Positions 6,187 to 26,040 of a stretch of 32,961 nucleotides of DNA are shown here, one piece after another; position 1 is the stretch's first letter; every line of letters begins with the position of its first letter. The notes beneath the pieces are model-generated. The model was not told the DNA's origin. It searched no databases and worked only from the letters and a program-made list of their open reading frames with translations. The stretch lies in sequence record SRR31156797_9239, one strand, 5' to 3'. Made by a program: the position numbers and the translations under genes.

Positions 6187-6195
6187 ACTCACTCC

Positions 6196-6855: not shown

Positions 6856-6872
6856 GATCTTCTCCTTAAATT

Positions 6873-8237
6873 CTATCCAAACGGCAAATTTGAAGTAGGC
6901 ACCTTGTACCGCCGTTCAGTCTGCCAGCTCTGAAGAGCCGACAACAGCCAAACTGGTCCCAGTCGCCCGACAAACATAAGTATGATAACCGTCACTTTTT
7001 CCACATCATCAAGCAAGGGAGTCAGGCCGGTTGAAAGTCCTACCGTACCAAAAGCGGAAACGGTCTCAAACATATTGAGAATAAATTCTTCACGCGCCAT
7101 CAGATACGAGCTGTCTCCACTCTCCAAAGCCGTTAACACCATGGTCCCGACAGCAACCAGAATAAATGTCATAGTGGTCAATGAGACAACTTTGTTCAGC
7201 GCGCCCTGCGTCAAGGCAAAACGCCCCAACTGAACTTGTTCTCGCCCACGAAACTGTGCCCAGACAAATCCGCACAAAGCTCGGAATGTTGTTGTCTTGA
7301 TTCCACCAGCACACGAACCAGGGGAACCGCCAATGAGCATAAGCAGCATCATGAAAACCAATGAAACATTGGCCATGCTCCCGATATCAACAGTGTTGAA
7401 ACCGGCAGTTCGACAGGTTACAGACTGAAAAAGTGCGGTCCACAGATGTTCCGACAAATCTGCTGGGGCATTCCCGGCAGCTCCTTCGGCAAAATAAATA
7501 ACCACTGCGCCAACCACCACCAAAAACAGGGACGTACTCAGTACAACGGATGAATGCCAACTCAACTTCGGCATGGCCTGACGTTTTCGCACTAGCCGAA
7601 CAGCCAGCTTCCGCAAATACGACGCACAATCAATCAGCACGTAGAACCCCAAACCACCGGCGGTAATGAGTATCATGAAGACCGAATTCACCCCGCCATG
7701 CCCTGCCCATTGAGTCAGACTGTCTGAATACAAAGAAAAACCGGCATTACAAAAAGCCGAAATAGAATGAAAAATCGCTGAATAAGGAGCAAACCCCACC
7801 GGGTCCATAAGCCAGAGTGCCACAGCACCGGCTCCTTCAAAAAAGAATGTCCACAACACAACTCGTGCCAAAAATTTCGGTAGGCTGAAGGAAGGATCAC
7901 GCAACAAACTCTGTCCCACGGCGATACGATCATTCAGCGATACATGCTTGCCAAGCAAATGGATAATGAGCGTGGTAAAAGTCATGATCCCCAGACCGCC
8001 GAGTTGGATAAGCACCAACAACACATCCAACCCAAAGGTAGAGAAATACGAACCAGTATCGACCACGGCCAAACCAGTGACGCACATGGCGGACGTTGCA
8101 GTAAAAAGCGCATCCACAAAAGAAAGCGGACCGCCGGGATGACTTGCGTCAAGATGCAGGATGAATGCGCCGATCAGAATGGTTCCGCCAAAGAACCAGA
8201 CAGGCAGCCAGTATGGAGAAAATAATTTAGCGCGCAT
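6873..8237 (-). CDS. ktrB: Ktr/TrkH potassium uptake membrane subunit
   Basis: Four pore-loop motifs: TSAMCVTGL, SAFCNAGF, TCRTAGF and SAFGTVGL. Also GSCAGGIK and MFVGRLGP. Start ATG 8237 (alternative TTG 8243). Confidence 0.93.
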   Translation of the reverse strand: MRAKLFSPYWLPVWFFGGTILIGAFILHLDASHPGGPLSFVDALFTATSAMCVTGLAVVDTGSYFSTFGLDVLLVLIQLGGLGIMTFTTLIIHLLGKHVSLNDRIAVGQSLLRDPSFSLPKFLARVVLWTFFFEGAGAVALWLMDPVGFAPYSAIFHSISAFCNAGFSLYSDSLTQWAGHGGVNSVFMILITAGGLGFYVLIDCASYLRKLAVRLVRKRQAMPKLSWHSSVVLSTSLFLVVVGAVVIYFAEGAAGNAPADLSEHLWTALFQSVTCRTAGFNTVDIGSMANVSLVFMMLLMLIGGSPGSCAGGIKTTTFRALCGFVWAQFRGREQVQLGRFALTQGALNKVVSLTTMTFILVAVGTMVLTALESGDSSYLMAREEFILNMFETVSAFGTVGLSTGLTPLLDDVEKVTVIILMFVGRLGPVWLLSALQSWQTERRYKVPTSNLPFG

Positions 8238-8248
8238 GAGCAATCACA

Positions 8249-8277
8249 TTTATATGCCTGTCAGCATATCCTGTCAA
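8249..8277 (-). promoter_or_regulatory. Putative internal sigma70 promoter for ktrBA-aroC
   Basis: TTGACA-N17-TATAAA on the minus strand in the short gap between aroL and ktrB. Confidence 0.65.
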
Positions 8278-8282
8278 AACAG

Positions 8283-8804
8283 TCAGGAAAGTCGTTCAAG
8301 CTCACGAAGGATCTGGTCGACCACATCATCAAGGCTCTCACCACTGACCACAATATCAGCACATCCCTCATACAACGGAGCGCGTTCAAGCAGAACTTCA
8401 CGAATTTCATCTACCACAGATTTCCCCGTCAAGGATGGACGCTGTTTTTCATTGGGATCATTCATCAACCGACGAGCCAATTCTTCCACGTCAGCCTTAA
8501 GATAGACTGTAATGCCCCCATGCAAGACAGCACGATTTTCCTTTCGTAGAACAATCCCTCCGCCACACCCTATGACACGCCCACCGGGCAAGGCTTCACG
8601 AAGGAGAGTCTCACTCTCCCGCTCCCGAAAAGCATCCCATCCGTGACGCTCTACATATTCCGCGATTTCTACGCCTACGGTTTGCACCAAAACATGATCC
8701 GTATCCACAAAATCAATGCCGAGACGATCTGAGAGCAGCCGTCCGACACTCGTCTTGCCACACGCTCGCGGGCCAATAAGAAATATATTCTGCTGTAGTT
8801 CCAT
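8283..8804 (-). CDS. aroL: Shikimate kinase (AroL/AroK family)
   Basis: Walker A GPRACGKT, FVDTD, GWDAFRERE, GCGGGIV, QRPSLTG and RAPLY. Start placed at ATG 8804; the ORF-track TTG at 8840 coincides with a -35 hexamer. Confidence 0.92.
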   Translation of the reverse strand: MELQQNIFLIGPRACGKTSVGRLLSDRLGIDFVDTDHVLVQTVGVEIAEYVERHGWDAFRERESETLLREALPGGRVIGCGGGIVLRKENRAVLHGGITVYLKADVEELARRLMNDPNEKQRPSLTGKSVVDEIREVLLERAPLYEGCADIVVSGESLDDVVDQILRELERLS

Positions 8805-8927
8805 GCTTGGGACCGTAGAGGAAAACGACGCAGGCTTCAATCTTTCAAGCGCATTACATATTTTCCAATTCTGCCAATTACTGATAGGCTTCGACCACTC
8901 ACACGATATCCATGAAGAGAGGCGTAT

Positions 8928-10423: not shown

Positions 10424-10969
10424 CTAACACGACTCGCTGCAACACGTTCCGTAAACAAAACCACAATACGTATGGAACACTCGGGTCTGTTTTTCTCGTT
10501 GCTCATCGGTCAGCGGCTTCATTTCAACTTTGGACACCATCTCCACCAAATCTGTAAAATCAGGAACCGCGTCCATGCTTTGAGCGATTCTCTCACCGCT
10601 TTTCACATCCATTAACGACGCATCCATAGTATCGGTAACCAAAGCATACGGTACAGGGCCGCCGTCGATGAGTCGGGCCGCACACACGGTCTCACGTTCA
10701 AATGTCCCGACATTTCCTGCACAGAAAATGATAATGAAGATAGGCTTGTCTTGCTCGTCATACAGCACATAATCAACAGGCCGCTCAAACTCTTCACCGT
10801 CCACAGTATAAGACAGCAAAACCTTGGCTTTGATTCGTTCCTTGGGATATCCCTTTTCTTCCACCAATAACTTCACAAGCAATTGCCGAAATTCTTCAAA
10901 AGTTGTCTCGTCAATTTCTTCGCCACTCAAATAATCACGGAGCGTTCCGCCCAAACTCGTTTCATGCAT
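10424..10969 (-). CDS. Stand-alone protein resembling the type I restriction enzyme HsdR N-terminal domain, with a Cys-rich tail
   Basis: EEFRQ...LVEEKGYPKERI...RPVDYVLY...PYALVTD resembles HSDR_N_2-type proteins. Ends YCGFVYGTCCSESC. AAGGA SD. Confidence 0.7.
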   Translation of the reverse strand: MHETSLGGTLRDYLSGEEIDETTFEEFRQLLVKLLVEEKGYPKERIKAKVLLSYTVDGEEFERPVDYVLYDEQDKPIFIIIFCAGNVGTFERETVCAARLIDGGPVPYALVTDTMDASLMDVKSGERIAQSMDAVPDFTDLVEMVSKVEMKPLTDEQREKQTRVFHTYCGFVYGTCCSESC

Positions 10970-11336: not shown

Positions 11337-11732
11337 TTACACTACGTTACTGTCAAGAATTAGTGATGAAAGCGTTACCATTCCAACAATCTCGCCCATG
11401 TGTTCTACCGGCGCACGGTGCACTCCCGTGCGATAAATCAACCGAATAGCATACCGAATATCCATAGTCGCTGGGACAGTAATCACAGGCTTTGTCATCA
11501 CTTCATATACACTGACATCCTCGCCTTCACGGCCAGGTACAATAACATCTTTAACCAGATCCATTATTGTGACGATAGCCCACGCGTCGTCTTCATTACG
11601 TTTATTCACAAGCAGTTCAGAAGTCTTGTACTTACGCATCATAGCTGCAGCGTCTTTCACAGAGGCCATGCCATCAATACTCAAAATTTCAGGGTGCATG
11701 ACATCTCGAACTCGCACTATTGATAGTGACAT
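11337..11732 (-). CDS. Stand-alone tandem CBS-domain protein
   Basis: VRDVMHP..., VYEVMTKPVITV and IVGMVTLS form a CBS pair. GGAGG SD. Confidence 0.92.
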   Translation of the reverse strand: MSLSIVRVRDVMHPEILSIDGMASVKDAAAMMRKYKTSELLVNKRNEDDAWAIVTIMDLVKDVIVPGREGEDVSVYEVMTKPVITVPATMDIRYAIRLIYRTGVHRAPVEHMGEIVGMVTLSSLILDSNVV

Positions 11733-11771
11733 TCATCCTCCTTATTCTTTCCCGTAAGTATTTATTTCATA

Positions 11772-12119
11772 TTAAAAGTATGAGTCACGAACCTTTTCCT
11801 TGAACCGCTCAATCTGACTTTCCATGCCGATGACATCTTCAACAGGCAAAACAAACGCTATACCTGTCCCCGGCTCATGAAACTGTCCCGTAGTTTCAAT
11901 GGCTTTCAGCACAGGTTTAACCGTGTGCTCCTCCAACAGAAATAGAACGATGTCAGTCTGATCCTCAAGCGTTAGGCCAAAAAAGGTGTGCGCTTCTCGC
12001 ATACCTGTACCGCGAGCGGTGATAATGGTCGCACCAGTGGCTCCAACTTCCTTTGCCGCATCAACAATGGAATCCGTTATATGCGTCTTGACCGATGCGA
12101 GGATGAGTTTGAATCTCAT
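11772..12119 (-). CDS. PII-like signal transduction protein (non-GlnB/GlnK)
   Basis: GATGATIITARGTG and EPGTGIAFVLPVE loop motifs; 115 aa. Overlaps the upstream stop codon (ATGA). Confidence 0.9.
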   Translation of the reverse strand: MRFKLILASVKTHITDSIVDAAKEVGATGATIITARGTGMREAHTFFGLTLEDQTDIVLFLLEEHTVKPVLKAIETTGQFHEPGTGIAFVLPVEDVIGMESQIERFKEKVRDSYF

Positions 12120-12904
12120 AGGTTTCTCCTATCTTTCTTCGACTTTCGACGAGCCGCCCAATCAGTGTACTGGGCATACCCCATGACGGTTATTATCGGG
12201 AACAGACTGGCAAACGCAATAAGACCGAATCCATCCAAAGCCGGATTTCTCCCAGGAACAGACTCCGCCAAACCAAGTCCCAAAGCAGCAACTAACGGTA
12301 CTGTGACAGTAGAAGTTGTTACCCCGCCAGAGTCGTACGCCAAGGCTATCATCTTTTTCGGCGTCACAAATGTTTGCAAAATCACTATGACATACCCTGC
12401 TAAAATATACACATATAGAGGCGTGCCGGTCACTATACGAAAGGTCCCCAAAGCTATTCCTACCGCAACCCCTATAGCAACAGTGATACGCAAGCCCCAC
12501 TGGCTTATTACGCCACCCGAAACTTCACTTGCCTTAATGGCTACAGCCAACAAAGAAGGTTCGGCAATAGTGGTTGAAAATCCGATCATTGCTGCAAATA
12601 CATACACCCAACCATATGAAGACCAACAAGTCATGGATGTGATGTCGCCATCAACGGCCGTGAATGAGGGACATGAGAGTTGAAAAGCCATAATCTTTCC
12701 CACAGGGAAAAGAGCCTTATCGAGTCCGATGAGAAACAACGTGAGACCAAGTAAGACATACACTCCTCCGACGACAAGACGACGGAGATGAGGGATGGGT
12801 TGCCGCAAAACAAAAAGCTGAAAGAACACGATCAAAATCACTATCGGAAGAATATCCCGAAAAGTTGCAAGAAAAGTTGCTGAAAATTCGATCAAAATAT
12901 TCAT
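12116..12904 (-). CDS. DUF1538-family membrane protein (second copy)
   Basis: [27 protein letters not shown] and [13 protein letters not shown]; multiple TM helices. Confidence 0.88.
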   Translation of the reverse strand: MNILIEFSATFLATFRDILPIVILIVFFQLFVLRQPIPHLRRLVVGGVYVLLGLTLFLIGLDKALFPVGKIMAFQLSCPSFTAVDGDITSMTCWSSYGWVYVFAAMIGFSTTIAEPSLLAVAIKASEVSGGVISQWGLRITVAIGVAVGIALGTFRIVTGTPLYVYILAGYVIVILQTFVTPKKMIALAYDSGGVTTSTVTVPLVAALGLGLAESVPGRNPALDGFGLIAFASLFPIITVMGYAQYTDWAARRKSKKDRRNL

Positions 12905-12914
12905 GTTTTCTCAC

Positions 12915-13682
12915 TCAGCCAAAAACAAATAAACCGTAACCCATAACAAAAATCATGGGGAGCAATGATGCAAAGGCAATAAGGCCAAAACCATCAAGTA
13001 ACGGGCTACGTCCTTTGATTATCGAGGCAAGCCCAACTCCAAGGGCTGCGACCAATGGAACAGTCACGGTTGAAGTGGTAACACCACCTGCGTCATACGC
13101 GATACCAACTATTTCTTTAGGAGCAACAAGAGTCATTAACATAACAATAACATAGCCCCCAATGATCAAATAATGAACAGGCCAGCCCCGAAGAATGCGT
13201 AACACACCAACAAGAATGGCCACGCCCACGGAAAAAGCGACGGAAAGCCTCAGACCCATGGCGTACCGGTTCATGGACGATTCATTTGCTGCTATGAGAT
13301 CACCCTGCGCCGCAATACTTGCTGCTTCTGCAGAAACCGCTATAAGAGCCGGTTCAGCAACAGTTGTCGAAAACCCAAGAGCAAAAGCAAAAGTCAAAAG
13401 CCAAAACAAACTCCCTTTTCGAGCCAAGGCATGGGCCATGTTTTCACCGACAGGGAACAGCCCCATCTCCAGTCCCTGAATGAAAAGCGTCAAACCAATA
13501 ACGACAAGCAATCCACCGAAAATCACACTCCCTAGATCCGGCAATGACTGCTTAAGAACCACGATTTGGAAAAAAGCGATAACCAAAATGATCGGCAACA
13601 AGTCTTTGAAAGAACTCCATAGCTTTTTCCGCACGCTACGAAAGACAATGCCCAGCCGCGATGACATATGCTGTACTTTCAT
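12915..13682 (-). CDS. DUF1538-family membrane protein (first copy)
   Basis: [27 protein letters not shown] and [13 protein letters not shown]; paralog of the next gene. Alternative start at 13667. Confidence 0.88.
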
Positions 13683-14027: not shown

Positions 14028-14064
14028 AACCGCCCGGTTCAGCATAAAGCCAAACCGGGCGGTT
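14028..14064 (-). terminator. Intrinsic terminator of the nuo-like operon
   Basis: 12-bp perfect stem AACCGCCCGGTT/AACCGGGCGGTT, followed on the minus strand by a T-rich tract; about 20 nt after the nuoN stop. Confidence 0.85.
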
Positions 14065-14086: not shown

Positions 14087-15535
14087 CTAGTGACCGCCAC
14101 CGGAAACAATCCCGTACAAGCTTTCACCTGCAGCGATGGCAAAATTGAACATCGGTGCCGGAATGATACCAATGATCAAAACGGCTGCTGCCAACATGCC
14201 TGCACCAGCTGAAGCAAACCAGCTATTATCTGGTGCCGGGACATCACCGGGCACCGTCTCTTCTGTAAAGGCGTGACGGAACAGACTCAGATAATAGTAG
14301 ATAGCAATGGCTGAATTCAACACCAAAGTGATGACCAACCAGTTATATCCATGATCCCATGCTGAAGTGATAAGGAAGAACTTGCCCATAAAGCCCATGG
14401 TCGGCGGCAAGCCAACAAGAGCAAAAGCGCCGACCGCAAGTGAGAATGCGAGTACCGGTGCTTTCTTATACAGACCGTTCAAATCACTCAACTTCAAATT
14501 ACGTCCATCAACGGCTACACGACTAACGATCCAGAAGACCAACAGGTTCATGACCAGATAGGCCAAGCCATAGAATGCGGCTGCACCAACACCCTCAGGA
14601 GTGCCACTGACCAAACCGACCATTATGTACCCAGCGTGTGCCACAGACGAGAATCCAAGCAAACGCTTGAGGTCTGTCTGAGCCAGTGCGGACAGGTTAC
14701 CCCACGTCATGGATAAAGCACCAAGAATCGCAATAATCGTGGTAATCTCCAGACCGGGCTTGAGCAGCACGGCAAGACGACACAAAACGACAATGGCGCC
14801 CATCTTGGGCATGGTAGCCACAAATGCAGCAGTCTCGTTACTCGCTCCCTGATAAACATCTGGGCACCAGAAGTGGAACGGGAACAAAGCCAATTTAAAG
14901 AACATACCGGTCAGGAACAATGTCAGACCAACAACGGCCATGGGCTGATCGGCAAACGACCAGGATTTGTTCATGAGTTCAGCGATGTACGTAGTATGCT
15001 GAGAAGCCATGATGTAAGACAAGCCATACAGAGCCAATGCCGTGGCTACGGCACCAAACATGATGTACTTGATACCCGCTTCAGCCGCACCCTTTGATTT
15101 GGCGCGTAACGGGATGATTGCATACATGGAATAAGAAGCCAGCTCCAAAGCCAGATAGATGGTAATCAACTCCACGGAGGAAGCGAGCATCATCAGTCCG
15201 AGGGTGGAGAAACCAAGCAACATATAGTAATCAGCCCGTTTCCCTTCAACAAGCGTCGGCTGACGTGATGCGTTAAGTACAGTCACGTAAAAGCCAAACG
15301 CAATAGCGATCTTGAAGAACTGGGACATCAAATCAACTTTGTATACATCCCAGAACATGGTTCCGTGAAGGCCAAAGCCAGTAATGGCTACAAAGAAGGC
15401 AAGTCCCGCACCAAAGGGGATCCATTTTTCAACCGGAGGTTTCCACTCCCTGTTGCCGAGAGACTGGACCAAAAGGACCAGAACAAGACAAAAGAAGAAC
15501 AGTTCCGGGACAAGCGCAGTGAGATGGAAGTTCAC
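14087..15535 (-). CDS. nuoN: Complex I antiporter-like subunit N
   Basis: GTG start with GGGGA SD. LALELAS, EAGIKY, FKLALFPFHFWCPDVYQGA, KRLLGFSSVAHAGY and GLPPTMGFMGK. Confidence 0.93.
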   Translation of the reverse strand: MNFHLTALVPELFFFCLVLVLLVQSLGNREWKPPVEKWIPFGAGLAFFVAITGFGLHGTMFWDVYKVDLMSQFFKIAIAFGFYVTVLNASRQPTLVEGKRADYYMLLGFSTLGLMMLASSVELITIYLALELASYSMYAIIPLRAKSKGAAEAGIKYIMFGAVATALALYGLSYIMASQHTTYIAELMNKSWSFADQPMAVVGLTLFLTGMFFKLALFPFHFWCPDVYQGASNETAAFVATMPKMGAIVVLCRLAVLLKPGLEITTIIAILGALSMTWGNLSALAQTDLKRLLGFSSVAHAGYIMVGLVSGTPEGVGAAAFYGLAYLVMNLLVFWIVSRVAVDGRNLKLSDLNGLYKKAPVLAFSLAVGAFALVGLPPTMGFMGKFFLITSAWDHGYNWLVITLVLNSAIAIYYYLSLFRHAFTEETVPGDVPAPDNSWFASAGAGMLAAAVLIIGIIPAPMFNFAIAAGESLYGIVSGGGH

Positions 15536-15547
15536 GTCTCAATCCCC

Positions 15548-17080
15548 CTATTTCTTGCCCGCAAGGACGTTCAAAACGTCAGCGGCAGCAGTTTGCAACG
15601 GTTGTTCAGTTTCGATGGAAGCGACCTTTCGCTTATCGAAATCACCCAACAACTTATCAATTGAAGGATTGATAATCTTGTAAAACGGAGCAGGAGCCAA
15701 GCCGATCCAGAGTACGAATACGGCAGGAATGGTCAACATGATCCATTCGCGAGCATTAAGATCACGCCATGTTTTGGCGGAACTAGGTCTGCCCCAAGCC
15801 ATCTTCAAACTCACACGGAACATGTAAGCTGCGGCCAATAATGCACCAGGAATACACAAGAAACCGATTATTACGGACGACTTGAATGCGCCAGTCAACA
15901 CCAACATTTCACCGACAAACCCGTTGGTTCCCGGGAAGCCGAATGATGCCAGAGCCATAAAGCCCCAGAAGAACATGAAGGCTGGCAAATATTTGCCAAG
16001 GCCCAAGTTGTCCTTGATGTCACGACTATGACTGCGTTCATAAACGGTACCAATCAACATAAAGAGTGCGCCTGTAACGATACCATGGTTCAGCATCTGG
16101 AAGAGCGCACCTTGGACACCCTGTTGATTAAACAGGAATATGCCCAAAGTAACAAAGCCCATATGGCCTACCGAAGAGTAGGCAACAAGCTTTTTAATGT
16201 CAGTTTGTCCCAGCGCGATAGCCCCGCCATACAAAATGGACACGATGGAAATCGCGATCATCATGGGAGCGAAGTACTCACTGGCGGCTGGAGTCAGCGG
16301 CAGGCAGAAACGCAGGAAACCATAAGTTCCCATCTTCAGCAGGACAGCCGCCAGTATGACGGAACCAGCAGAAGGCGCCTGAACATGCGCTGCGGGCAGC
16401 CATGTATGGAACGGGAACATGGGGACCTTGATGGCGAAGGCCAAAGCCATTGCCAAGAAAGCCCAGAACTGAAAGCGGAAGCTAAAGTTCATATTCATGA
16501 GTTCCGGGATAGAAAAGGTACCACCCGTAATCCTGAATGCAACGATAGCTGCCAGGAGCAAAGTGGAACCTGCCAACGTATACAGGAAGAACTTGAGCGA
16601 TGCATATTTGCGATCATCGCCACCCCAAACTGCAATAAGCAGATACATGGGGATAAGCATGGCTTCCCAGAACACGTAGAAGAGGACCAGATCCAGGGCG
16701 CAGAAAACGCCGAGGACCGCAGAGGTCATGAACAGCAAACAGAAGTGGAATTCCTTCTCCCGTTTGCCGATGTAGGTCCAAGAACACATGACACATAGCG
16801 GCAAGACCGCGATAGTCAACAGGACCATGAGTATGCTGATTCCATCTATGCCGAGGTAGTACTGAAGTCCCCATTTGTGGACCCAGTCGATTTTCTCGAC
16901 GAACTGGAATTCAGCGTTCATTGTAAAGCCGGTCAAAGGTATGGCCAGCAGACACTCTATAATGGACGCTACCATAGTATAGTAGCGTACCACCTGCGGC
17001 GACCGCAGGAAGAAGAGTCCGCACGCCGCGACCAGCGGGAATGCTATCAGTATCGTAAGAACCGGATATCCGAAGTCCAA
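15548..17080 (-). CDS. nuoM: Complex I antiporter-like subunit M
   Basis: GIDGIS, FYVFWEAMLIPMY, KFFLYT, KVPMFPFHTWLP, LLKMGTYG and FPGTNGFVGE. TTG start with GGAG SD. Confidence 0.95.
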   Translation of the reverse strand: MDFGYPVLTILIAFPLVAACGLFFLRSPQVVRYYTMVASIIECLLAIPLTGFTMNAEFQFVEKIDWVHKWGLQYYLGIDGISILMVLLTIAVLPLCVMCSWTYIGKREKEFHFCLLFMTSAVLGVFCALDLVLFYVFWEAMLIPMYLLIAVWGGDDRKYASLKFFLYTLAGSTLLLAAIVAFRITGGTFSIPELMNMNFSFRFQFWAFLAMALAFAIKVPMFPFHTWLPAAHVQAPSAGSVILAAVLLKMGTYGFLRFCLPLTPAASEYFAPMMIAISIVSILYGGAIALGQTDIKKLVAYSSVGHMGFVTLGIFLFNQQGVQGALFQMLNHGIVTGALFMLIGTVYERSHSRDIKDNLGLGKYLPAFMFFWGFMALASFGFPGTNGFVGEMLVLTGAFKSSVIIGFLCIPGALLAAAYMFRVSLKMAWGRPSSAKTWRDLNAREWIMLTIPAVFVLWIGLAPAPFYKIINPSIDKLLGDFDKRKVASIETEQPLQTAAADVLNVLAGKK

Positions 17081-17106
17081 AACTAGCTCTCCTTAGATTG
17101 TCCGGC

Positions 17107-18903
17107 TTAGCCGAAGTACCAAACCAGGGCGAAGATGCCCAAGCCGAGGACGGCGGCCAATGCCAGGTAATCCTGCAGATTGGCAGTCTGGACTTTCGCC
17201 CCTGCCCTGCCGATGTTCCTCACAGTGTAAGCACCACCGTCCACCACTGTATCGATGCCCTTCTTGTCAAACCAAGAAGTACCATCCCCCATACCGATGA
17301 GCGAACGCAAACCAATGGTATTATAAACCTCGGTCCAAACGTCATCCACCTTCGAAATCGGCCAACAAACAACACGCATGAGCGTAGTGCCGATGAAACG
17401 ATAGAAGATATCGAAGTCCAGATTGAGCTTCGCATGCGGAGTAATGATCTCGCGGGTCAAGTAGAAGGCCAAGCCGGAGAAACCGAGCAACAGACCAGAG
17501 TTGATGACCTTGTCGAGATGCCAGGGCTCAAATGCATGTTCTACCGGGAAAGGCAGATATTGATACAACATATGAGGGTAGACACCTTGGGCGATGCAAA
17601 GCAGGCCGCAAATTGCCATACCGACGTACATGTTGACTGGCAGTGGCTTGACTTCGCCGACATATTCTTTTTTACCGCCCCAGAACGCAAAGTACGGGAG
17701 CTTGATACCGACAGAGATAAACGTACCCACTGCGGCAATCTCCATTCCGAGAGCCAAAATCGTGCGATGGGCTTCAGCCGCACCGGCGATAGTCATGGTT
17801 TTCGAAATAAAGCCGTTGAAAAGGGGCATACCGGAGATGGACAGGGCTGCGATCATATACAAAACCATAACCCAGGGCAGTTTGTAAGCAAGCCCACCCA
17901 GTTTATCCAGCTTGGCAGTACCGACCGAATAAAGAATCGCGCCGGTTCCCATGAACAGAAGGCCCTTATAAAGAATATGGGCATAAGCATGAGCCACTGC
18001 GCCGTTGAGCGTCATGGCCGTACCGATGCCGATACCCGCCACCATGTAACCCACCTGGGATACAATGTGGTAGGACAGAATCCGTCGAGCATTATTTTCA
18101 ATACACGCGTACAAAACACCAAAAACAGCCATACAGGTACCGGCGATAGCAAGGACTTCCCATCCTGCATAGCCGCGTGCCAGCACATAGACTGCCGTCT
18201 TGGTGGTAAAGGCGCACATGTACACAGCACCCGCAACGGATGCGCGAGGGTATGCGTCAGGCAACCAAGCATGCAAAGGCACGACTGCAGCGTTGACACA
18301 AAAGCCGATCAGGATCAGCCAATCATACAGTTGGGCCCCGGAGGGATCCACTGCATTGAAAGCAAAGCTCCCTGTGGCCTTGTACTTGAGCAGTAATCCG
18401 CCGAGCAGGAACAGGCCGCCAACGGTATGGTACAAGAAGTACCTGAAACCGGCACCAACAGACTCTTCAGTCCGGGCCTGCCAGATCAGGAACGTGGAAC
18501 CGATGGACATAAGTTCCCAAAACAGGAAGACCGTCAGCAAGTCGCCTGCAAACACGCAGCCGAAGCCACCTGCCACATAAAGCGAACCGCAAACGTAATG
18601 CCCCCTGTCCTCGACGTGCATGCCGTAGATGGCACCGATGAACGCGATAACCGAAAAAACCTGGCCGAAAACGATGGACAATTTGTCCACACGCCCCAGT
18701 ACCAGAGCTTGATCAAGATATTCCAACGCACCATACGTACCCGGTTCCACCGTGAAGATGGAATAGAGCGCGATAAGCGGTGCAAGTAATGCCAATGTGC
18801 CGCGAAACGCCTTGTTCATCCAAAGCGCTTTGGGGACAAAGGGCACAACAATAACCAATGCAAGGAAGGCCATGGAGGGATGGATGAACATACTAGTCTC
18901 CAT
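17107..18903 (-). CDS. Antiporter-like subunit with an MrpD-type core and a NuoL-like C-terminal extension
   Basis: FLFWELM, LHAWLPDAYP, ILSYHIVSQVGYM and ILYKGLLF. The C-terminus FDKKGIDTVVDG...VQTANLQDY plus a TM resembles the NuoL lateral helix and anchor. Confidence 0.85.
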   Translation of the reverse strand: METSMFIHPSMAFLALVIVVPFVPKALWMNKAFRGTLALLAPLIALYSIFTVEPGTYGALEYLDQALVLGRVDKLSIVFGQVFSVIAFIGAIYGMHVEDRGHYVCGSLYVAGGFGCVFAGDLLTVFLFWELMSIGSTFLIWQARTEESVGAGFRYFLYHTVGGLFLLGGLLLKYKATGSFAFNAVDPSGAQLYDWLILIGFCVNAAVVPLHAWLPDAYPRASVAGAVYMCAFTTKTAVYVLARGYAGWEVLAIAGTCMAVFGVLYACIENNARRILSYHIVSQVGYMVAGIGIGTAMTLNGAVAHAYAHILYKGLLFMGTGAILYSVGTAKLDKLGGLAYKLPWVMVLYMIAALSISGMPLFNGFISKTMTIAGAAEAHRTILALGMEIAAVGTFISVGIKLPYFAFWGGKKEYVGEVKPLPVNMYVGMAICGLLCIAQGVYPHMLYQYLPFPVEHAFEPWHLDKVINSGLLLGFSGLAFYLTREIITPHAKLNLDFDIFYRFIGTTLMRVVCWPISKVDDVWTEVYNTIGLRSLIGMGDGTSWFDKKGIDTVVDGGAYTVRNIGRAGAKVQTANLQDYLALAAVLGLGIFALVWYFG

Positions 18904-19153
18904 AATAGTCCTCCTTCCTGGCTATAAACGGCTGAACCACTTTCTTCATAATGATAACCATGGCCAGCCCCACGATAAGACCGAATCCGGCAAAGAACCC
19001 GGGGTACTTATCGAGACCAAAGTGCGGGTGATGTGTGACAAACGGAACATTGAGCACCAAAAGCACTCCCAGCGTCACGAAGAATATAATTCTCCACGCT
19101 TTCCAGTTGTCTCTCCATTTGGCGAGTAATCCGCCCAAACCTTTTTGACTCAT
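18893..19153 (-). CDS. Small two-TM membrane protein within the nuo-like operon
   Basis: 86 aa; two hydrophobic helices flanking HHPHFG; ends RKEDYYGD. GGGGA SD; overlaps the next gene. Confidence 0.8.
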   Translation of the reverse strand: MSQKGLGGLLAKWRDNWKAWRIIFFVTLGVLLVLNVPFVTHHPHFGLDKYPGFFAGFGLIVGLAMVIIMKKVVQPFIARKEDYYGD

Positions 19154-19163
19154 ATCATTCCCC

Positions 19164-20711
19164 CTAGAACTTGCCGAGAACGTTGACGAAGTTCAGGAAT
19201 GTCTGCGGATACAGACCCAAGAACACCGAGATGAATGCCGTGATCATTAACGGCACGACCATGGTCATGGACGGCTCGTTGTATTGCCCGATATTGGCCT
19301 CCGGTTTGGGAGCCTTGAAAAAGGCACGATACAAAATGGGCACGAAGTAACCGGCGTTCAATGCCGTACTGAGAAGCAGTGCGACGAGCAGCGGCCACTG
19401 GTGCGCATCAAGCGTACCGTTGATCAAGTACCATTTGGAGACAAAACCGCAAGCGGGCGGCATACCGATCATTGACAGGGAGGCTATACCAAAAGCACCA
19501 AAGGTGAGCGGCATTCTGCGTCCCAAACCATCCATGAGGCTGATCTTCTTCAGGTGGCAGGCGACATAAATGGCACCCGCAGCCATAAAGAGTGTGATCT
19601 TGGAAAAGGCGTGGTGGGCGATGTGCATGACACCACCTTGTACCGCCGTATCCACCAGCATGGTTACACCAACAACGACATAAGAGAGCTGGGCTACCGT
19701 TGAGTAAGCCAGTCGCGCTTTAATATCATCCTTGGTCAAGGCGATGAACGAAGCCACCGTCAAAGTAAAGGCCGCAATATAGGCCGTTCCCAATCCGATG
19801 CTCAGATCACCAAGCCAGGTACCGGGTGCGCCAACATAAATCTGACTCATTGTCAGCATGGCAGCGGTCTTGGTCCCGAAGGCCGAGAGCACGATACGGC
19901 AGACACAGAAGACACCGGCTTTAACAACGGCCACAGCATGCAGCAAAGCCGAAACCGGAGTCGGCGCGACCATTGCTGAAGGGAGCCAGTTGTGGAACGG
20001 CATGAGAGCCGCCTTACCGATACCAAAGATGAACAACCAGTACGTGAGGGCCACCAGTCTGGGATGTTCGGCAATAACTTCAGCGGAGAACATACCGTTC
20101 TGGATGTCACCCAAATTGAAGTCCAAATTGCCGACCAATACGTAGGTAAGCACCATTGCGGGCAGGAGGAAGAGCTTGGAAGTACCCATCAAGTAGACAA
20201 TGTACTTGCGAGCGCCAATCTTGGCAGCTTGATCCTCATGATGATAAACAAGCGGATACGTGAATACGGTGATCACTTCATAAAAGAGATACAATGTAAA
20301 CACGTTGGCAGAAAGAGCCACACCGACGGCGCCAAAAATAGCCACCGCAAAACAGATGTAATATCTGGTCTGTGCGTGCTCGTTCAATCCCCGCATGTAA
20401 CCGATGTTATAACTGGTTACAAAGAACCAGAGAAACGGCGCGATCAGAGCAAAGACCATGCTCAGCCCGTCGGCCGCAAATGCTATTGATATTCCGGGCA
20501 TGATGGTGGTGACTTTGTAGTACAGCACCTCACCGCCCAGTACCCTCGGAGCCATACAAAGCACCGAACCGAACGTCAAAAACGCGCCGATAAAGCTCAT
20601 GGCCTCGCGTCTGTTTTCATCCCCTCGTCCGAGGTAGATAAAAAGCGGCACAAGGAGAGTGATCACCACCGGCAGAAGAATTTGACTATATGTAGTTACG
20701 CCTTCCATCAT
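19164..20711 (-). CDS. Antiporter-like subunit (monovalent cation/H+ antiporter family, NuoL/MrpA-type core without the C-terminal tail)
   Basis: LYLFYEV, GKAALMPFHNWLPSAMVAPTPVSALLHAVAVVKAG, RLAYSTVAQL and HHAFSKITLF. Confidence 0.88.
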   Translation of the reverse strand: MMEGVTTYSQILLPVVITLLVPLFIYLGRGDENRREAMSFIGAFLTFGSVLCMAPRVLGGEVLYYKVTTIMPGISIAFAADGLSMVFALIAPFLWFFVTSYNIGYMRGLNEHAQTRYYICFAVAIFGAVGVALSANVFTLYLFYEVITVFTYPLVYHHEDQAAKIGARKYIVYLMGTSKLFLLPAMVLTYVLVGNLDFNLGDIQNGMFSAEVIAEHPRLVALTYWLFIFGIGKAALMPFHNWLPSAMVAPTPVSALLHAVAVVKAGVFCVCRIVLSAFGTKTAAMLTMSQIYVGAPGTWLGDLSIGLGTAYIAAFTLTVASFIALTKDDIKARLAYSTVAQLSYVVVGVTMLVDTAVQGGVMHIAHHAFSKITLFMAAGAIYVACHLKKISLMDGLGRRMPLTFGAFGIASLSMIGMPPACGFVSKWYLINGTLDAHQWPLLVALLLSTALNAGYFVPILYRAFFKAPKPEANIGQYNEPSMTMVVPLMITAFISVFLGLYPQTFLNFVNVLGKF

Positions 20712-20713
20712 AG

Positions 20714-21022
20714 TTATTCCTTCAATGTAGTGATGTCACTGATTCTGGCGGATTTGAATCGCCGTGCAACGACCACGATGATTGCAAGGACCAATGTAGC
20801 CTCAGCTGCGGCAAGTCCCATGACAAACAAGGTGCCGAGTTGACCAAGAACCGCACTGAATTCAGTCAACTGAGCCGCTGCCACCATGGACAGTCCTGCA
20901 CCGTTGAGCATGAGTTCCACCGAGATCAACATACCGACGAGACTCCTGCGTTGCGTCAAACCAAACAGGCCCGCACACAGAAGCATCAACGCGACAATTT
21001 GATAAAGGGTCAGAGCACTCAT
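20714..21022 (-). CDS. nuoK: Complex I subunit K
   Basis: MLISVELMLNG and LAAAEA; three TM. Confidence 0.95.
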   Translation of the reverse strand: MSALTLYQIVALMLLCAGLFGLTQRRSLVGMLISVELMLNGAGLSMVAAAQLTEFSAVLGQLGTLFVMGLAAAEATLVLAIIVVVARRFKSARISDITTLKE

Positions 21023-21532
21023 TTATTTCTTCCCCCTTTTTTCCCATGTCAGAAGCACTGCTCCGGACATTGCCACCATGAGGATGACCGAGATCAACTC
21101 AAAGGGCAGGAAGTAGGAACCGAGCAATCCCTGACCGAGTTCCTTGATGGTTACTTCAACAGGAACCGCCACAGAATCGACTGGCTTGGTCATAACCAGC
21201 CAGCCTAAAATGGCAGCAGGTGACAAGGTTGCCGCCAGTCCGTAGACATACGTCTTCATGGAGGCATATCCGCTTTCGTCACCGCCCTTTTCCGCTCGAG
21301 TCAACATGACTGCGAAGAAAATCAGGACACTGACTGCACCGACATAGATAAGAAGTTGCATAAAAGCCATAAAAGGCGTCGCCAAGAGTAGATACATCCC
21401 AGCCACACCGATCAAGGTGGTGATAAGTCCCACCAAGGCGCGAACAAGACTACTACTCGTGACGGCGACAATGGCCCCGCCCAAAATGATGAGCGTGTAC
21501 ACGCAAAATGCTACTTTTGCCATGACTTCCAT
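21023..21532 (-). CDS. nuoJ: Complex I subunit J
   Basis: QLLIYVGAVSVLIFF and YFLPFELIS. Start reassigned to ATG 21532 (GGAGG SD). Confidence 0.93.
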   Translation of the reverse strand: MEVMAKVAFCVYTLIILGGAIVAVTSSSLVRALVGLITTLIGVAGMYLLLATPFMAFMQLLIYVGAVSVLIFFAVMLTRAEKGGDESGYASMKTYVYGLAATLSPAAILGWLVMTKPVDSVAVPVEVTIKELGQGLLGSYFLPFELISVILMVAMSGAVLLTWEKRGKK

Positions 21533-21533
21533 A

Positions 21534-22121
21534 TTACGCCTCCTTCTCTGCCGCGGCCGGTTTGGCCTCGGTTTTGGGAGCCGGTGCGGACAATTCCGTG
21601 GCCTGCTCCTTGAGCCTGGCGAGAAGATCAATGTTCATCTCTTTCCGTGAAGTCGCCACCCAATACATATTATTAGAGAACTTCAACGACTTGGCCGGAC
21701 AATTATCGATACATGTGCCGCACAGCGAACACAGCGTATAGTCGTAGGTGAATTTCAACGGATTCTTGGGAGCTTTAGGCTTGACAACCTTCTCTCCAGC
21801 TTCCTTGGCAGCAGCCATGGCCGCTTCCTGCTCAGGCGTAGGCTTGGGAGCCTTCTGCTTGACGACTTTCAAGCACTTACTCGGGCAGTTGGTCACACAC
21901 ATCATGCAGGAAATGCACTTGGGCATGGCCGGATCCTTGGGCTTACCGATCAATTCGATATGCCCGCCGTATGTATTCAGATTCTCGTCGTCAATGACCT
22001 GCCGGGGATAGTGGACAGTGATCAAAGGCTTGCAAAAATACTTACCCGTAATCTTGAGTCCAACGATCAAACTCCAGCAGTCGAGAATCGGCTGTATTAC
22101 TTTTTCTCTGAATTTACCCAT
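21534..22121 (-). CDS. nuoI: Complex I subunit I (2x[4Fe-4S])
   Basis: ITVHYP; CISCMMCVTNCP and CSLCGTCIDNCP. Confidence 0.92.
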   Translation of the reverse strand: MGKFREKVIQPILDCWSLIVGLKITGKYFCKPLITVHYPRQVIDDENLNTYGGHIELIGKPKDPAMPKCISCMMCVTNCPSKCLKVVKQKAPKPTPEQEAAMAAAKEAGEKVVKPKAPKNPLKFTYDYTLCSLCGTCIDNCPAKSLKFSNNMYWVATSRKEMNIDLLARLKEQATELSAPAPKTEAKPAAAEKEA

Positions 22122-22131
22122 ATCTACACCC

Positions 22132-23106
22132 CTACAACTTGATGATCAGCGCGGTGGCCAACAGGTTGAATGTGGCCAACGGCAGCAACCATTTCCAGTT
22201 GATGTTCAGCAGTTGGTCAAACCGAACGCGGGGGAAGGTCCAACGAGCCCAGATCATGACGAACAGCAAAGCGTACGTCTTGAGAAGCATCCACCACCAT
22301 CCTTCGATGCCGGGGATAGGGCCATGGAATCCGCCCAGGAAAAGGACGGAACAAACGGAGCACATGACAACCATGTATCCATACTCAGCCATGAAGAAGA
22401 GACCAAATCCCATGGAGGAATACTCCGTATGGAAACCGGCAGTCAGTTCGGACTCGGCCTCGGCCAAATCAAACGGAGCGCGGTTGGTCTCACCAAACAT
22501 TGCGATAATAAAGATAATGAATGCCAGCGGCTGCTTCCAGACAAACCAGTTGCCAATGTGACCAGCCTGCAACGAGGTAATCTCGGTCAGGCTCAAGGTA
22601 CCAGTCATAAAGGAAATGGCCAGTACGGTCAGAAGCAATGGAATTTCATATGCAACAGTCTGCGACACGGCACGAGCGGCACCGAGAACGCCCCATTTAT
22701 TGTTGGATGCCCAACCAGCCAAAATCACCGCCAGTCCGTTAAAACTGGAGAAGGCCAGAATCAGCAACAAACCAAGGTTCACTTCCATCCCTGTCAGCAC
22801 TGGGCCATACGGAATGGGCATAAAGAGCAACAACACCGGAATCATAGACAAAATTGGAGCGAGCCAATAAAGGACCGGGTCCGAATTGTCCGGAGTCAAG
22901 AGTTGTTTACCCATGAGTTTCAAACCATCTATAAGTGGCTGGAGAGCGCCGTGAGGACCAACTTCAAACGGACCGGGCCTGCGCTGAATGTGGCCCGCGA
23001 ACTTACGTTCGCAGTAGACCAACACCAGGGCATTGAGACCCAGCCAGACCATGGCCCCGATCATGGCGATGACCAGAGGTATCAGGTTCTGTAAGAATTC
23101 GTTCAT
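22132..23106 (-). CDS. nuoH: Complex I subunit H
   Basis: ERKFAGHIQRRPGP, QPLIDGLKL, ETNRAPFDLAEAESELTAGFHTEYS and PRVRFDQL. Confidence 0.97.
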   Translation of the reverse strand: MNEFLQNLIPLVIAMIGAMVWLGLNALVLVYCERKFAGHIQRRPGPFEVGPHGALQPLIDGLKLMGKQLLTPDNSDPVLYWLAPILSMIPVLLLFMPIPYGPVLTGMEVNLGLLLILAFSSFNGLAVILAGWASNNKWGVLGAARAVSQTVAYEIPLLLTVLAISFMTGTLSLTEITSLQAGHIGNWFVWKQPLAFIIFIIAMFGETNRAPFDLAEAESELTAGFHTEYSSMGFGLFFMAEYGYMVVMCSVCSVLFLGGFHGPIPGIEGWWWMLLKTYALLFVMIWARWTFPRVRFDQLLNINWKWLLPLATFNLLATALIIKL

Positions 23107-23114
23107 TATTCCCC

Positions 23115-24287
23115 CTACCTATCGATTTCCGGAATAATCAGGTCCAGACTACCCAAAATGGCGACAGCGTCGGCCAGGATAGTTCCCGTTGCGGCCTCAG
23201 CAAATGCGCTCAAGTTGGAGAAACCCGGTGCGCGCAGCTTGATGCGGTACGGGACCTTAGTTCCATCGGAAACGGCGTAAACGCCAATCTTTCCGCGTCC
23301 GCCCTCAACATTGAAGTAAGCTTCGCCTGCCGGCGGCTTCATGGACGGTTTGGGGGCCTTCTTAATAATATGGGCACCTTCTGCGGAGTCCAATTGCTCA
23401 AGAGCTTGCTCAATAATACGCATTGACTGTTCCATCTCGGCCACGCGGACATGATACCGTCCAGCCGAACATGCAGTGTCCTGCGTCGGGATATCGAAAT
23501 CGAAACGATCGTACACGGAGTACGGCTCGTCCTTACGCAGATCATAAGGGACACCCGCACCACGAACGACAGGACCGGTGCAGCCATAACGGCGGCACAT
23601 ATCCTGATCCATGATACCTACTCCCTCAATACGTCTACGCAGAATAAGGTTTTCAGTGACGAGATCATGGTACATGGGCAGTCTTTCCCTGAAATGCGGA
23701 ATAAACGCCTTAATCAACTCGAGACACTTGTCGTCCAAATCCATCTGCACGCCACCGACACGGAAATTGGAATAGGTCAATCTGGAAGCCGACGGCCTCT
23801 GCAGGATGTCCAAAATCATTTCACGATCGTCAAATGCGTACATGATGGGGGTAAACGCGCCAAGGTCAAGGATGTAGGCTCCCCACCACAACAAGTGGGA
23901 GGTCAGACGGTTGAACTCGGTCATAATGACCCGCAGATATTCCGCCCTTTCCGGCACCTCAATGCCCATCAGTTTTTCGACTGCGCCCACGTAGGCCCAA
24001 TTCCAGGCCATGGCGTGTCCGTAGTCGACGCGGCCCATATTGGGGATATAACCACCCCAAGTCTGGGTCTCGCCCATTTTCTCATGCATGCGGTGCAGGT
24101 AACCCAGTACGGGTTCGGCTCGGACGATGTACTCACCGTCCACCTCGATCACGATCCTCAGCACGCCATGCGTTGACGGATGCTGCGGACCCATATTGAT
24201 GATCAGGGTTCCGTCCTGCTTCCCGGCCTCGAACTTCTGGGTGTAGAAATCACCCTTCATTTGTTCTAAATTTTGGTAAGCCGACAT
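23115..24287 (-). CDS. nuoD: Complex I subunit D
   Basis: NMGPQHPSTHGVLR, GYLHR, RVDY and C-terminal GSLDLIIPEIDR; no NiFe CxxC motifs. Confidence 0.96.
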   Translation of the reverse strand: MSAYQNLEQMKGDFYTQKFEAGKQDGTLIINMGPQHPSTHGVLRIVIEVDGEYIVRAEPVLGYLHRMHEKMGETQTWGGYIPNMGRVDYGHAMAWNWAYVGAVEKLMGIEVPERAEYLRVIMTEFNRLTSHLLWWGAYILDLGAFTPIMYAFDDREMILDILQRPSASRLTYSNFRVGGVQMDLDDKCLELIKAFIPHFRERLPMYHDLVTENLILRRRIEGVGIMDQDMCRRYGCTGPVVRGAGVPYDLRKDEPYSVYDRFDFDIPTQDTACSAGRYHVRVAEMEQSMRIIEQALEQLDSAEGAHIIKKAPKPSMKPPAGEAYFNVEGGRGKIGVYAVSDGTKVPYRIKLRAPGFSNLSAFAEAATGTILADAVAILGSLDLIIPEIDR

Positions 24288-24328
24288 ACACTCTCAGTCC
24301 GGTTTATATACCGACCGGTTGCCCCGGC

Positions 24329-24856
24329 CTACGCATCGGCGGCCTCCTCGGCCACCGCTTCCGCAAACAATTCTTCCACTTCCTTGGAACAAGACACGAT
24401 TTCACCAAGTGTCAAAATGTCCTTAATGGACTTACGAACCTTGGCCGTCTTGATCAGGGGGTGAACATCAACATCCTCTACTGCCATCAAAAGTGGCACT
24501 AGGTTAGGATTGCCCTCGAAGATGACACCATGGAAATCACGGGTTTCCCGCTCATGCCATTCGGCACCCTGAAAAACAGAAGCAATGGACGGCACTACCG
24601 CGTTGTCCTTGGGGAGCAATACACGCAAAGTGACACGCTCTTCGATGTTCCATCTATTAAAATGATAGATCACCAAAAAACCCTCTTCGATATCCAATGC
24701 AAAGATATCTTCAAGAGAGTATTCTGCTTCATACAATTTCTGGGCTGCTTTGACGATCTGGTTCGGAGCCAGAAAAATCGACCAGACATGTCCGGTCGCG
24801 CCTTTGTCCTGCTTGGCAACACACTGAGTCGCCACGCTTTCCAAGACTTGCAACAT
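24329..24856 (-). CDS. nuoC: Complex I subunit C
   Basis: PSIASVFQGAEWHERETRDFHGVIFEGNPNL...HPL. Start reassigned to ATG 24856 (GGAGG SD). Confidence 0.9.
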   Translation of the reverse strand: MLQVLESVATQCVAKQDKGATGHVWSIFLAPNQIVKAAQKLYEAEYSLEDIFALDIEEGFLVIYHFNRWNIEERVTLRVLLPKDNAVVPSIASVFQGAEWHERETRDFHGVIFEGNPNLVPLLMAVEDVDVHPLIKTAKVRKSIKDILTLGEIVSCSKEVEELFAEAVAEEAADA

Positions 24857-24858
24857 GA

Positions 24859-25404
24859 TTAACCCTCCACCTCGGCGGCGACGGGCCACCAGCGTTTACC
24901 GGTGATCAGACGCTGCAACTCGAAGAACCCCTCAAGCAGACCTTCCGGTCTCGGAGGACAACCCGGAACATAGACATCAACGGGGATCAACGTATCCACG
25001 CCTTCGACTACATTATAGTTATCCTTAATCTTAAAGGGACCGCCGGAAATGGCACAGTTACCCATGGCAATAACCCACTTGGGTCCGGGCATCTGTTCGT
25101 ACAGCCTGACTACGGCTGGCGCCATCTTCTTGGTCACGGTGCCTGCGACGATCATGACATCAGCCTGACGCGGGGAGGGCCTGAAAACCTCCGCCCCGAA
25201 CCGGGCCATGTCGAATCGAGCCATACCGGCAGCCATCATTTCGATAGCACAGCACGCAAGTCCGAATGTCATGGGCCACAAAGACATAGATCGACAGACG
25301 TCGAAAAGGTCCTGCGCCAATTGAAGGTTGACGATGGGCGGCTCCATATAATGGTTGCCCGTCGTCAAAAAGTCCTTGGGAACTACTGAATCCTGCGCGG
25401 CCAT
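24859..25404 (-). CDS. nuoB: Complex I subunit B (N2 cluster)
   Basis: [25 protein letters not shown] and VPGCPPRPE. Start reassigned to ATG 25404. Confidence 0.96.
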
Positions 25405-25760
25405 GTAAACACCCCTTTCGCCCAAAAATAGATGACGGAAAGAATAAGGAAGAACAGGAAGATGAACAACTTTACGAAAGGAACCCATCCTTCGGCGTCA
25501 GCGTACGCCGTAGAAACCGGAAACAAGTAAAGGACATCTACGTCGAAAGCGAGGAAGATCAAGGCGTATACATAATAAGATACACCCCACCTCGCCCACG
25601 AACTGCCGTAAGGGACCATGCCACATTCATATGGCATACCAACGTCCCCGCCCCGCGCTTTGGGAGCGAACAGCACTGCGAGAATCAAAGGCCCGACGGC
25701 AAAGAGTAGTCCGCCGAGCAAAAACAATATGATTGCAAAATGCAGCCAGTCGAAAACCAT
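25383..25760 (-). CDS. nuoA: Complex I subunit A
   Basis: [19 protein letters not shown] and WAKGVFTW; three TM. Confidence 0.95.
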
Positions 25761-25984
25761 ACCCCATCCTTTGGCTTTAAATTTGCGAAAACCCTAAAAC
25801 AAAACATTTTTCAAGGGTTACCGAGTTCCATGCCCCGAAAAAAGGCCTAAGTCAAGCACATTGCTCTTTTTTTCGCGAAAGACTTGCACTCTAAGTATAT
25901 AGTTTCCTTGACTCTGATTCTGATATAAAAAAAAGGAGAATACAGGCTCGTGACACAGTTCCAGCAGTCTAAAAAAACAAAAAA

Positions 25985-26008
25985 AACGCCTTGCATATGC
26001 AAGACGTC
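25985..26008 (-). terminator. Intrinsic terminator after the diguanylate cyclase
   Basis: Minus strand GACGTCTTGC-ATAT-GCAAGGCGTT stem (with G-U pairs), followed by a long T run. Confidence 0.75.
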
Positions 26009-26040
26009 TTACAAAATAAAAATAATCAGAGAGAAAAAGT

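Follow-up and report, generated by a model that had tools for sequence, protein, structure and literature searches.

Operon layout and gene features

The window, by which we mean the whole stretch of 32,961 nucleotides analysed (sequence record SRR31156797_9239), carries a complex I (nuo) operon that encodes no NuoL and has instead two subunits related to those of Mrp-type antiporters, here called D1 and D2. The operon is real and conserved, and comprises 13 closely spaced open reading frames (ORFs), all on the minus strand, from 25760 to 14087. Profile searches with NCBIfam and Pfam gave the gene order nuoABCDHIJK, D1 (515 amino acids, aa), a small gene (86 aa), D2 (598 aa) and nuoMN (Table 1), with profile matches for NuoA, B, C, D, H, I, J, K, M and N, and the PF00361 domain was found in four of the operon proteins. 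The initial annotation, made from the letters alone, had described a closed 13-gene operon with a terminator and four antiporter-like subunits; ORFs, profile matches and flanking hairpins bear this out, and its coordinates and sizes agree. Judged by Shine-Dalgarno sites, the probable starts of nuoJ, nuoB and nuoC lie at 21532 (169 aa), 25404 (181 aa) and 24856 (175 aa), respectively.

Terminator-like sites number 21 in the whole window, compared with 15.9 +/- 3.5 in shuffled sequences, and the two hairpins flanking the operon are the longest of them. The window has no Rfam match. In one small metatranscriptome, short contigs covered 21 of 30 bins of the region; strand, level and co-transcription are not readable from such contigs.

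Table 1. Features of the nuo operon and of its borders (positions in the window)
Feature	Position	Strand	Description
nuoA	25383..25760	-	125 aa; profile match
nuoB	24859..25404	-	~181 aa from likely start; N2 cluster cysteines present
nuoC	24329..24856	-	~175 aa from likely start
nuoD	23115..24287	-	390 aa; quinone-site His and Tyr motifs present, without NiFe CxxC
nuoH	22132..23106	-	324 aa; profile match
nuoI	21534..22121	-	195 aa; two 4Fe-4S motifs
nuoJ	21023..21532	-	~169 aa from likely start
nuoK	20714..21022	-	102 aa; profile match
D1 antiporter-like subunit	19164..20711	-	515 aa; MrpA/NuoL-like core motif, without lateral-helix extension
86-aa small membrane protein, no named family	18893..19153	-	two hydrophobic stretches around His-rich loop
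D2 antiporter-like subunit	17107..18903	-	598 aa; MrpD-like core
Predicted D2 lateral helix (residues 498-571), then final transmembrane helix (576-597)	17191..17412	-	
nuoM	15548..17080	-	510 aa; groups with canonical NuoM
nuoN	14087..15535	-	482 aa; profile match
Intrinsic-terminator-like hairpin 3' of nuoN	14028..14064	-	16 pairs and T-run
Terminator-like hairpin at the end of the upstream diguanylate-cyclase gene, setting that gene apart from nuoA	25983..26010	-	

NuoD carries HPSTHG at residue 36 and RVDY at residue 86; its cysteines lie at 188, 231, 236 and 273, and there is no N- or C-terminal CxxC. The cluster motifs of NuoB are LACC (77), GNC (143) and GCP (176), so both sets of residues, quinone-site and N2 ligands, are as first described. 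Among related NuoD sequences, the His and Tyr motifs occur in 45 of 45 and the NiFe CxxC in 0 of 45, and a Group 4 NiFe hydrogenase was rejected on the latter count.

Absence of the head module

The genes nuoE, nuoF and nuoG are absent from the window operon. Genome-wide searches were done in the nearest complete genome, G001 (a single contig, 100% complete), whose 13 operon proteins are 99.7-100% identical to those of the window. That genome contains no NuoF (PF01512, PF10589), no NuoE and no NuoG-type cluster domain, and the same NuoE/NuoF/NuoG searches were positive in 8-10 of 14 control genomes. The lack of a head, read at first from the operon, holds for the whole of G001, and a headless, quinone-type enzyme is supported.

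In G001, PF00361 occurs only in this operon and in EchA of an Ech hydrogenase operon, the large subunit of which does have two CxxC Ni ligands. The same genome gave no match for MrpE (MrpB, F and G were not searched separately) and no other NuoL, and the window itself holds no cation-module genes mrpB/C/E/F/G. Futalosine-pathway menaquinone genes were present in all five genomes tested, G001 included. Its ferredoxin-linked systems are the Ech operon and two Rnf operons (L143, L144). Each Rnf operon has a multiheme-cytochrome-like gene in front of it and an RnfB-like protein of 700 aa as its last product; the RnfC of both was not picked up by PF01512.

Identity and ancestry of the D1-small-D2 block

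D1 scores 724.8 bits with NF006236 (cut-off 663) and D2 scores 707.5 bits with NF009310 (cut-off 564), both models being labelled 'antiporter subunit D'. The cut-off of the NuoL model (407.5 bits) is missed widely by both, with 204.6 bits for D1 and 127.8 for D2. In operons of the complex I type and of the Mrp type alike, the small gene sits between D1 and D2. Two hydrophobic stretches of its 86-aa product enclose a conserved His/acid loop. This product has no NCBIfam or Pfam match; a search with it returned 61 matches, none with a Pfam family, and the Atlas gives only hypothetical-protein clusters.

A quick tree was built from 67 of 320 alignment rows, each trimmed to its first 520 residues, and gives no direction of transfer between Mrp and Nuo. 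D1 of both operon types forms one group (support 100), and D2 of both types another (100). The window NuoM joins canonical NuoM (support 100), with D1 and D2 outside that clade; NuoL and MrpA stand apart, D1 groups near them (support 87), and neither D1 nor D2 falls inside NuoL or NuoM. Because the tree groups D1, D2 and NuoM apart, NuoL has not been split and NuoM has not been duplicated: a split NuoL was also rejected on the grounds that D1 and D2 each have a full antiporter domain, and a duplicated NuoM on their position outside the NuoM clade. Sequence comparison shows that D1, the small protein and D2 share their ancestry with the genes at the end of a three-MrpD Mrp operon, and by the same comparison it is the D1-small-D2 block, common to such operons, that stands in the place of NuoL.

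In the three-MrpD Mrp/Mnh operons (mrpE-F-G-B-C-D0-D1-small-D2; for example loci L042-L047, L084, L100, L102-L105 and L107-L109), D1 is 42-48% and D2 ~40-46% identical to the window proteins, and D2 has the same Asn204 and His159. These operons differ in having a cation module and no redox subunits, in lacking Lys179 of D1 and in a differently built end of the D2 helix.

Comparison with known systems

The layout is that of the arm of green complex I, which is already published, so that an undescribed arrangement can be set aside. The original study is summarised in PMC7415380, and the pSymA operon of Sinorhizobium (S.) meliloti was matched to the published description only. This operon shares J-K-D1-small(84 aa)-D2-M-N with the window, two MrpD-like subunits again replacing NuoL, and the identities are 49% for D1, 44% for D2 and 51% for M; it also has the same Asn for the Lys of transmembrane helix (TMH) 7 in D2 and the same D1 Lys. 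It differs in that nuoEFG are present, in its order (J-K...N-A-B-C-D-E-F-G, with H-I on the other strand) and in a NuoI without the Lys-rich insert of the window NuoI. Since nuoEFG are absent from both the window operon and G001, we file the window operon as a headless form with a green-type arm.

Headless nuo operons have been reported in D. gigas and D. magneticus (PMC4287179). This Desulfovibrio Nuo likewise has no nuoEFG, and ferredoxin is the donor proposed for it. An operon of D. africanus has been labelled NUO11+M (PMC4758237), its identity in type with the window operon being unconfirmed; its extra antiporter-like gene is labelled a second NuoM, whereas D1 and D2 of the window do not group with NuoM. 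NUO11-type complex I has one each of NuoL, M and N, a set from which the window operon departs in having two Mrp-related subunits and no NuoL. The 2M complex I of Nitrospira (PMC9040806, PMC7419157) resembles the window complex in its fourth antiporter-like subunit and in a lateral helix ~25-26 residues longer, but it combines a true NuoL with a duplicated NuoM, while the window operon encodes a single NuoM and lacks NuoL. Both MrpD-like subunits recur in Complex_I_3 of Ca. Manganitrophaceae, a five-pump complex whose MrpD2 has another 26 residues inserted (PMC9040806). The complex of Desulfitobacterium is, like that of the window, headless and menaquinone-linked, and belongs to an anaerobe; it is described as having 11 subunits, with ferredoxin proposed as shuttle (PMC11238625), and was compared by description only.

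Distribution

D2 matches were found in 81 of the 151 sampled Desulfovibrionaceae genomes, one of which has an Mrp-type copy only. Fifty-three of the 81 lack PF10589, the NuoF C-terminal domain. All 14 strong D2 loci fetched showed K-D1-small-D2-M-N, and all six weaker second matches lay in D0-D1-small-D2 clusters, at least five of which come after genes of the Mrp set E, F, G, B, C. Fifty loci emerged from a scan of species genomes (38 of nuo type, 9 of Mrp type, 1 fragment and 2 distant); the hosts of the 38 are Desulfovibrionaceae, other Desulfobacterota, Verrucomicrobiota, one Telmatospirillum and unclassified bacteria. Relatives of D2 were also present on 101 plasmids, of which 99 are rhizobial by genus name.

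One genome (G131; L048, L050) bears two complete green-type nuo operons of two divergent subtypes, and G074, G107 and G147 also have two full-length D2 matches; all four genomes are of one genus. A rhizobial-like permuted order, J-K-D1-small-D2-M-N-A-B-C-D-H-I, was seen at L060, and L053 holds J to N within the stretch fetched. A metagenome-assembled genome of the alphaproteobacterial Telmatospirillum (L099) carries a headless operon of Desulfovibrionaceae type at ~48-75% identity, which suggests transfer or mis-binning. Several Desulfovibrionaceae three-MrpD Mrp loci end, by eye, in a small cyclic-nucleotide-binding-like gene, and the D2 of these operons has a longer hydrophobic insert at its C-terminus.

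The lateral helix of D2 and the order of the membrane arm

For the residue and helix counts, duplicates, sequences with X, partial genes and the distant loci L111-L112, which are of another type, were dropped; the D2 set is dominated by one family (52 of 72 sequences) and includes rhizobial, verrucomicrobial and other lineages. The lateral helix was measured from an anchor residue, the Asp of the D-x-x-Y motif, to the Gln before the last transmembrane (TM) helix. This distance is 22 residues in 5 of 5 extracted MrpA sequences (a hand count; 3 of 8 loci gave no extractable sequence), 49 residues in 19 of 20 canonical NuoL and 50 in the remaining one, and 74 residues in 66 of 72 nuo-type D2 (range 69-75). 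Counted from the anchor to the end of the protein, six short Mrp-type D2 have 76-78 residues, NuoL 75-80 and nuo-type D2 99-102. The helix end itself also separates the two types of D2: D546 is present in 72 of 72 nuo-type sequences and 0 of 12 of Mrp type, and D551 in 72 of 72 and 1 of 12.

An AlphaFold2 model of D2 (mean predicted local distance difference test, pLDDT, of 88.2) has one helix at residues 498-571 and the last TM helix at 576-597. Residues 4-516 superpose on residues 1-557 of Escherichia coli NuoL (Z 43.8, root-mean-square deviation 2.6 A, 487 aligned), and on account of this superposition D2 can be taken as ~25 residues longer than NuoL in a shared register. A single-sequence search of the PDB with the last 149 residues of D2 gave no match. 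The more subunits a lateral helix has to cross in tying the tip subunit to the arm, the longer it is. The simplest reading is that D2 is likely the tip subunit, with its helix crossing D1, M and N, in the order N-M-D1-D2.

The surfaces of the subunits point the same way. Lys179 of D1 (TMH6; 20175-20177) occurs in 47 of 47 nuo-type sequences against 0 of 12 of Mrp type; in the order N-M-D1-D2 the complex I form would bring D1 next to the terminal Glu of NuoM instead of the terminal Lys of D0. The residues E130, H159 and N204 in the N-terminal half of D2 are identical in nuo-type and Mrp-type sequences. A place for D2 at the tip is further favoured because catalysis stops when NuoM, an inner subunit, loses its TMH7 Lys, as reported for NuoM K232Q of Paracoccus (PMC9802314). 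In the literature searches no earlier description was found of the long lateral helix of D2, of the subunit order drawn from it or of the Asn204 change, the searches not covering two key primary papers.

Pumping residues and stoichiometry

NuoN (E131, K214, K244, K385), NuoM (E139, K218, K249, E391) and D1 (E145, K233, K264, K426, and also H258) retain the Glu of TMH5, the Lys of TMH7, the Lys of TMH8 and a Lys or Glu in TMH12. D2 retains Glu130, Lys235 and Lys368. Its TMH7 Lys is replaced by Asn204 (18292-18294) in all 72 sequences of nuo type and all 12 of Mrp type, and this position is Lys in all 236 other rows of the alignment; Asn204 aligns with K219 of MrpD in 7qru. The TMH7 Lys has been described as absolutely conserved and essential, and its pair with the Glu of TMH5 as invariant (PMC7419157), and this pair of a canonical antiporter-like pumping subunit is not present in D2. 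His159 (18427-18429; TMH6) is invariant and occurs in D2 only; it might replace the lost Lys.

Since D2 is without the TMH7 Lys, a fifth pumped proton is uncertain: D2 would add it only if His159 stands in for that residue, the odds of which seem about even. The increased stoichiometry foreseen in the initial annotation is weakened accordingly. The mixed H+/Na+ pumping foreseen there finds no support, because the Mrp cation-module genes did not accompany the D1-small-D2 block; apart from the NuoJ/K homologues they are absent.

The acid that follows the TMH12 Lys connects NuoL and MrpA to the periplasm (PMC7419157), and it is missing in D1 (W427) and D2 (T369). As a speculation, the His/acid loop of the 86-aa protein could supply the exit acid. 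Tentatively, and with the odds somewhat against the idea, the membrane arm of green-type complexes may be capped by an antiporter-like subunit naturally devoid of the TMH7 Lys. D2 would then sit at the tip behind a lateral helix three subunits long, and would either relay charge via a Glu130-His159 pair or serve only as the proton exit, with the exit acid given by the loop of the small protein. If this is true, the enzyme is a natural test both of one proton per antiporter subunit and of all protons leaving at the tip.

Electron donor, direction and competing explanations

The two 4Fe-4S motifs of the window NuoI are 62 residues apart, rather than 39-41, because of a Lys-rich insert (~21732-21884) with 11 K/R against 5 D/E. 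The rhizobial NuoI, from an operon with nuoEFG, has a spacing of 39, 5 K/R against 7 D/E and no insert; NuoI proteins encoded beside canonical NuoL also have a spacing of 39-41 and no insert, in operons unchecked for nuoEFG. To judge by its composition, the insert is a possible docking surface for an acidic ferredoxin. Ferredoxin has been proposed as donor for the headless Desulfovibrio Nuo (PMC4287179) and for the headless Desulfitobacterium complex, an enzyme required on lactate and pyruvate and not on H2 (PMC11238625).

On the whole we lean, by a modest degree, towards a complex I without NADH module, with the arm N-M-D1-D2, that acts as a forward ferredoxin:menaquinone oxidoreductase pumping protons, where donor and direction are both inferred. 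Reduced ferredoxin would dock on the Lys-rich NuoI, and electrons would reach menaquinone at the NuoD/B/H site by way of both NuoI clusters and N2. At the tip, D2 would send its helix back over D1, M and N, the last helix docking at N/J/K as that of NuoL does; D1 would face NuoM, with D1 Lys179 paired with NuoM terminal Glu391. The four antiporter-like subunits would pump 4-5 H+, and menaquinol might then feed fumarate reductase or Qmo. The potentials of ferredoxin and menaquinone are ~-450 mV and -74 mV, and with these values the energy is enough for four protons and borderline for five.

Of 80 genomes with the operon, 75 have a gene for the fumarate-reductase membrane subunit, as do 40 of 71 without it, a difference confounded by kinship and genome size; the gene lies within 30 kilobases of the operon in 10 of the 30 genomes that have both on one contig, and the 10 belong to five genera. 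In the window, this gene is the first ORF (270-920, minus strand), ~13 kilobases downstream of nuoN. Its G001 counterpart is the first gene of a group (L142:4857-9764) of frdCAB and two fumarase subunits.

Several points weigh against the forward reading with D2 at the tip. The literature searches turned up no study of this type of complex by biochemistry, genetics or structure, as the initial annotation had already supposed for biochemistry, and G001 is equipped with Ech and two Rnf operons for ferredoxin oxidation. The excess of the D2 helix is only ~14 residues when counted by hand from the end of TM15, and the helix region of the model has moderate to low confidence (pLDDT 52-78 at residues 491-580). 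Six other Mrp-type D2 also have long C-termini (94-105) of a different build, which we read, without proof, as an inserted hairpin. D1 carries the His-bearing core motif usual in the tip subunits MrpA and NuoL, which favours D1 at the tip. The exit of protons is unexplained, since D1 and D2 lack the acid after the TMH12 Lys. Finally, the D2 residue and helix counts are not independent, because they come mostly from one family.

The same complex could run mainly in reverse, the proton motive force driving electrons from menaquinol to ferredoxin on H2, formate or lactate, with the fourth subunit as extra drive. Such use has been proposed for the 2M and five-pump complexes (PMC9040806). Five protons at ~150 mV would balance the ferredoxin/menaquinone reaction, so the complex could run either way. 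We consider mainly reverse use unlikely: ferredoxin is already reducible by Ech and the two Rnf systems in G001, the fifth proton may not exist in a complex whose D2 has no TMH7 Lys, and the 11-subunit complex of Desulfitobacterium was required on lactate or pyruvate rather than on H2 (PMC11238625).

Somewhat farther from the evidence is a protein head other than NuoEFG, such as a formate dehydrogenase, NfnAB or a flavoprotein encoded elsewhere, that would dock on NuoI in place of free ferredoxin. The membrane arm does accept a head, since the rhizobial operon uses nuoEFG, and some NuoF-like domain is encoded elsewhere in 28 of the 81 D2-bearing family genomes. Such a partner is nevertheless quite improbable, as no redox gene adjoins the operon in the window, nuoE/F/G occurred in 0 of the 38 fetched flanks of nuo-type loci, and the Lys-rich loop of NuoI suits a small acidic partner.

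The arm could also be ordered N-M-D2-D1, with D2 in the place of NuoL and D1 as a fully active fourth pump at the tip, or the D1/D2 block could move Na+. For the former speak the tip-type motif of D1, its His258 and its position near NuoL and MrpA in the tree, and for the latter the sharing of the block with cation/proton antiporters. We regard this pair of options as very doubtful. The D2 helix is one subunit longer than the order N-M-D2-D1 requires, the inner face changed in the complex I form is that of D1 and not of D2, and an inner subunit without the Lys should block the relay; the Na+ path of Mrp runs via MrpC/E/F/G and the C-terminal part of MrpA (PMC7419157), which the block lacks.

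The idea that D1, D2 and the small protein make up an Mrp-type antiporter of their own, merely sharing the operon, was rejected as highly improbable, although the closest relatives of D1 and D2 are Mrp operon genes: G001 has no MrpE, D2 has a NuoL-type helix end (D546, D551) missing from Mrp-type D2, and the complex would then be without a tip subunit, since G001 has no other NuoL, all of which is in line with the initial view of the extra subunits as part of the complex.

Neighbouring genes

Directly 3' of the operon terminator lies a four-gene unit on the minus strand (11337-13682) with two DUF1538 membrane genes, a P-II-like gene and a CBS-domain gene. Further along the same strand are a stand-alone protein with the N-terminal domain of type I restriction R subunits (HSDR_N_2; 10424-10969) and the potassium-uptake genes trkH and trkA (5122-8840), the latter between the shikimate kinase and chorismate synthase genes.

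Biological meaning

The layout described here is published and common, and it is not a discovery; the useful remainder is the subunit order and the lysine-less fourth subunit. Four-pump complexes are assumed to move five protons, and the fourth subunit of this one lacks a residue described as invariant and essential. In a culturable sulfate reducer with the operon, the stoichiometry could be measured directly and current models of complex I coupling put to the test. The operon also bears on how energy is conserved in about half of the sampled Desulfovibrionaceae genomes.

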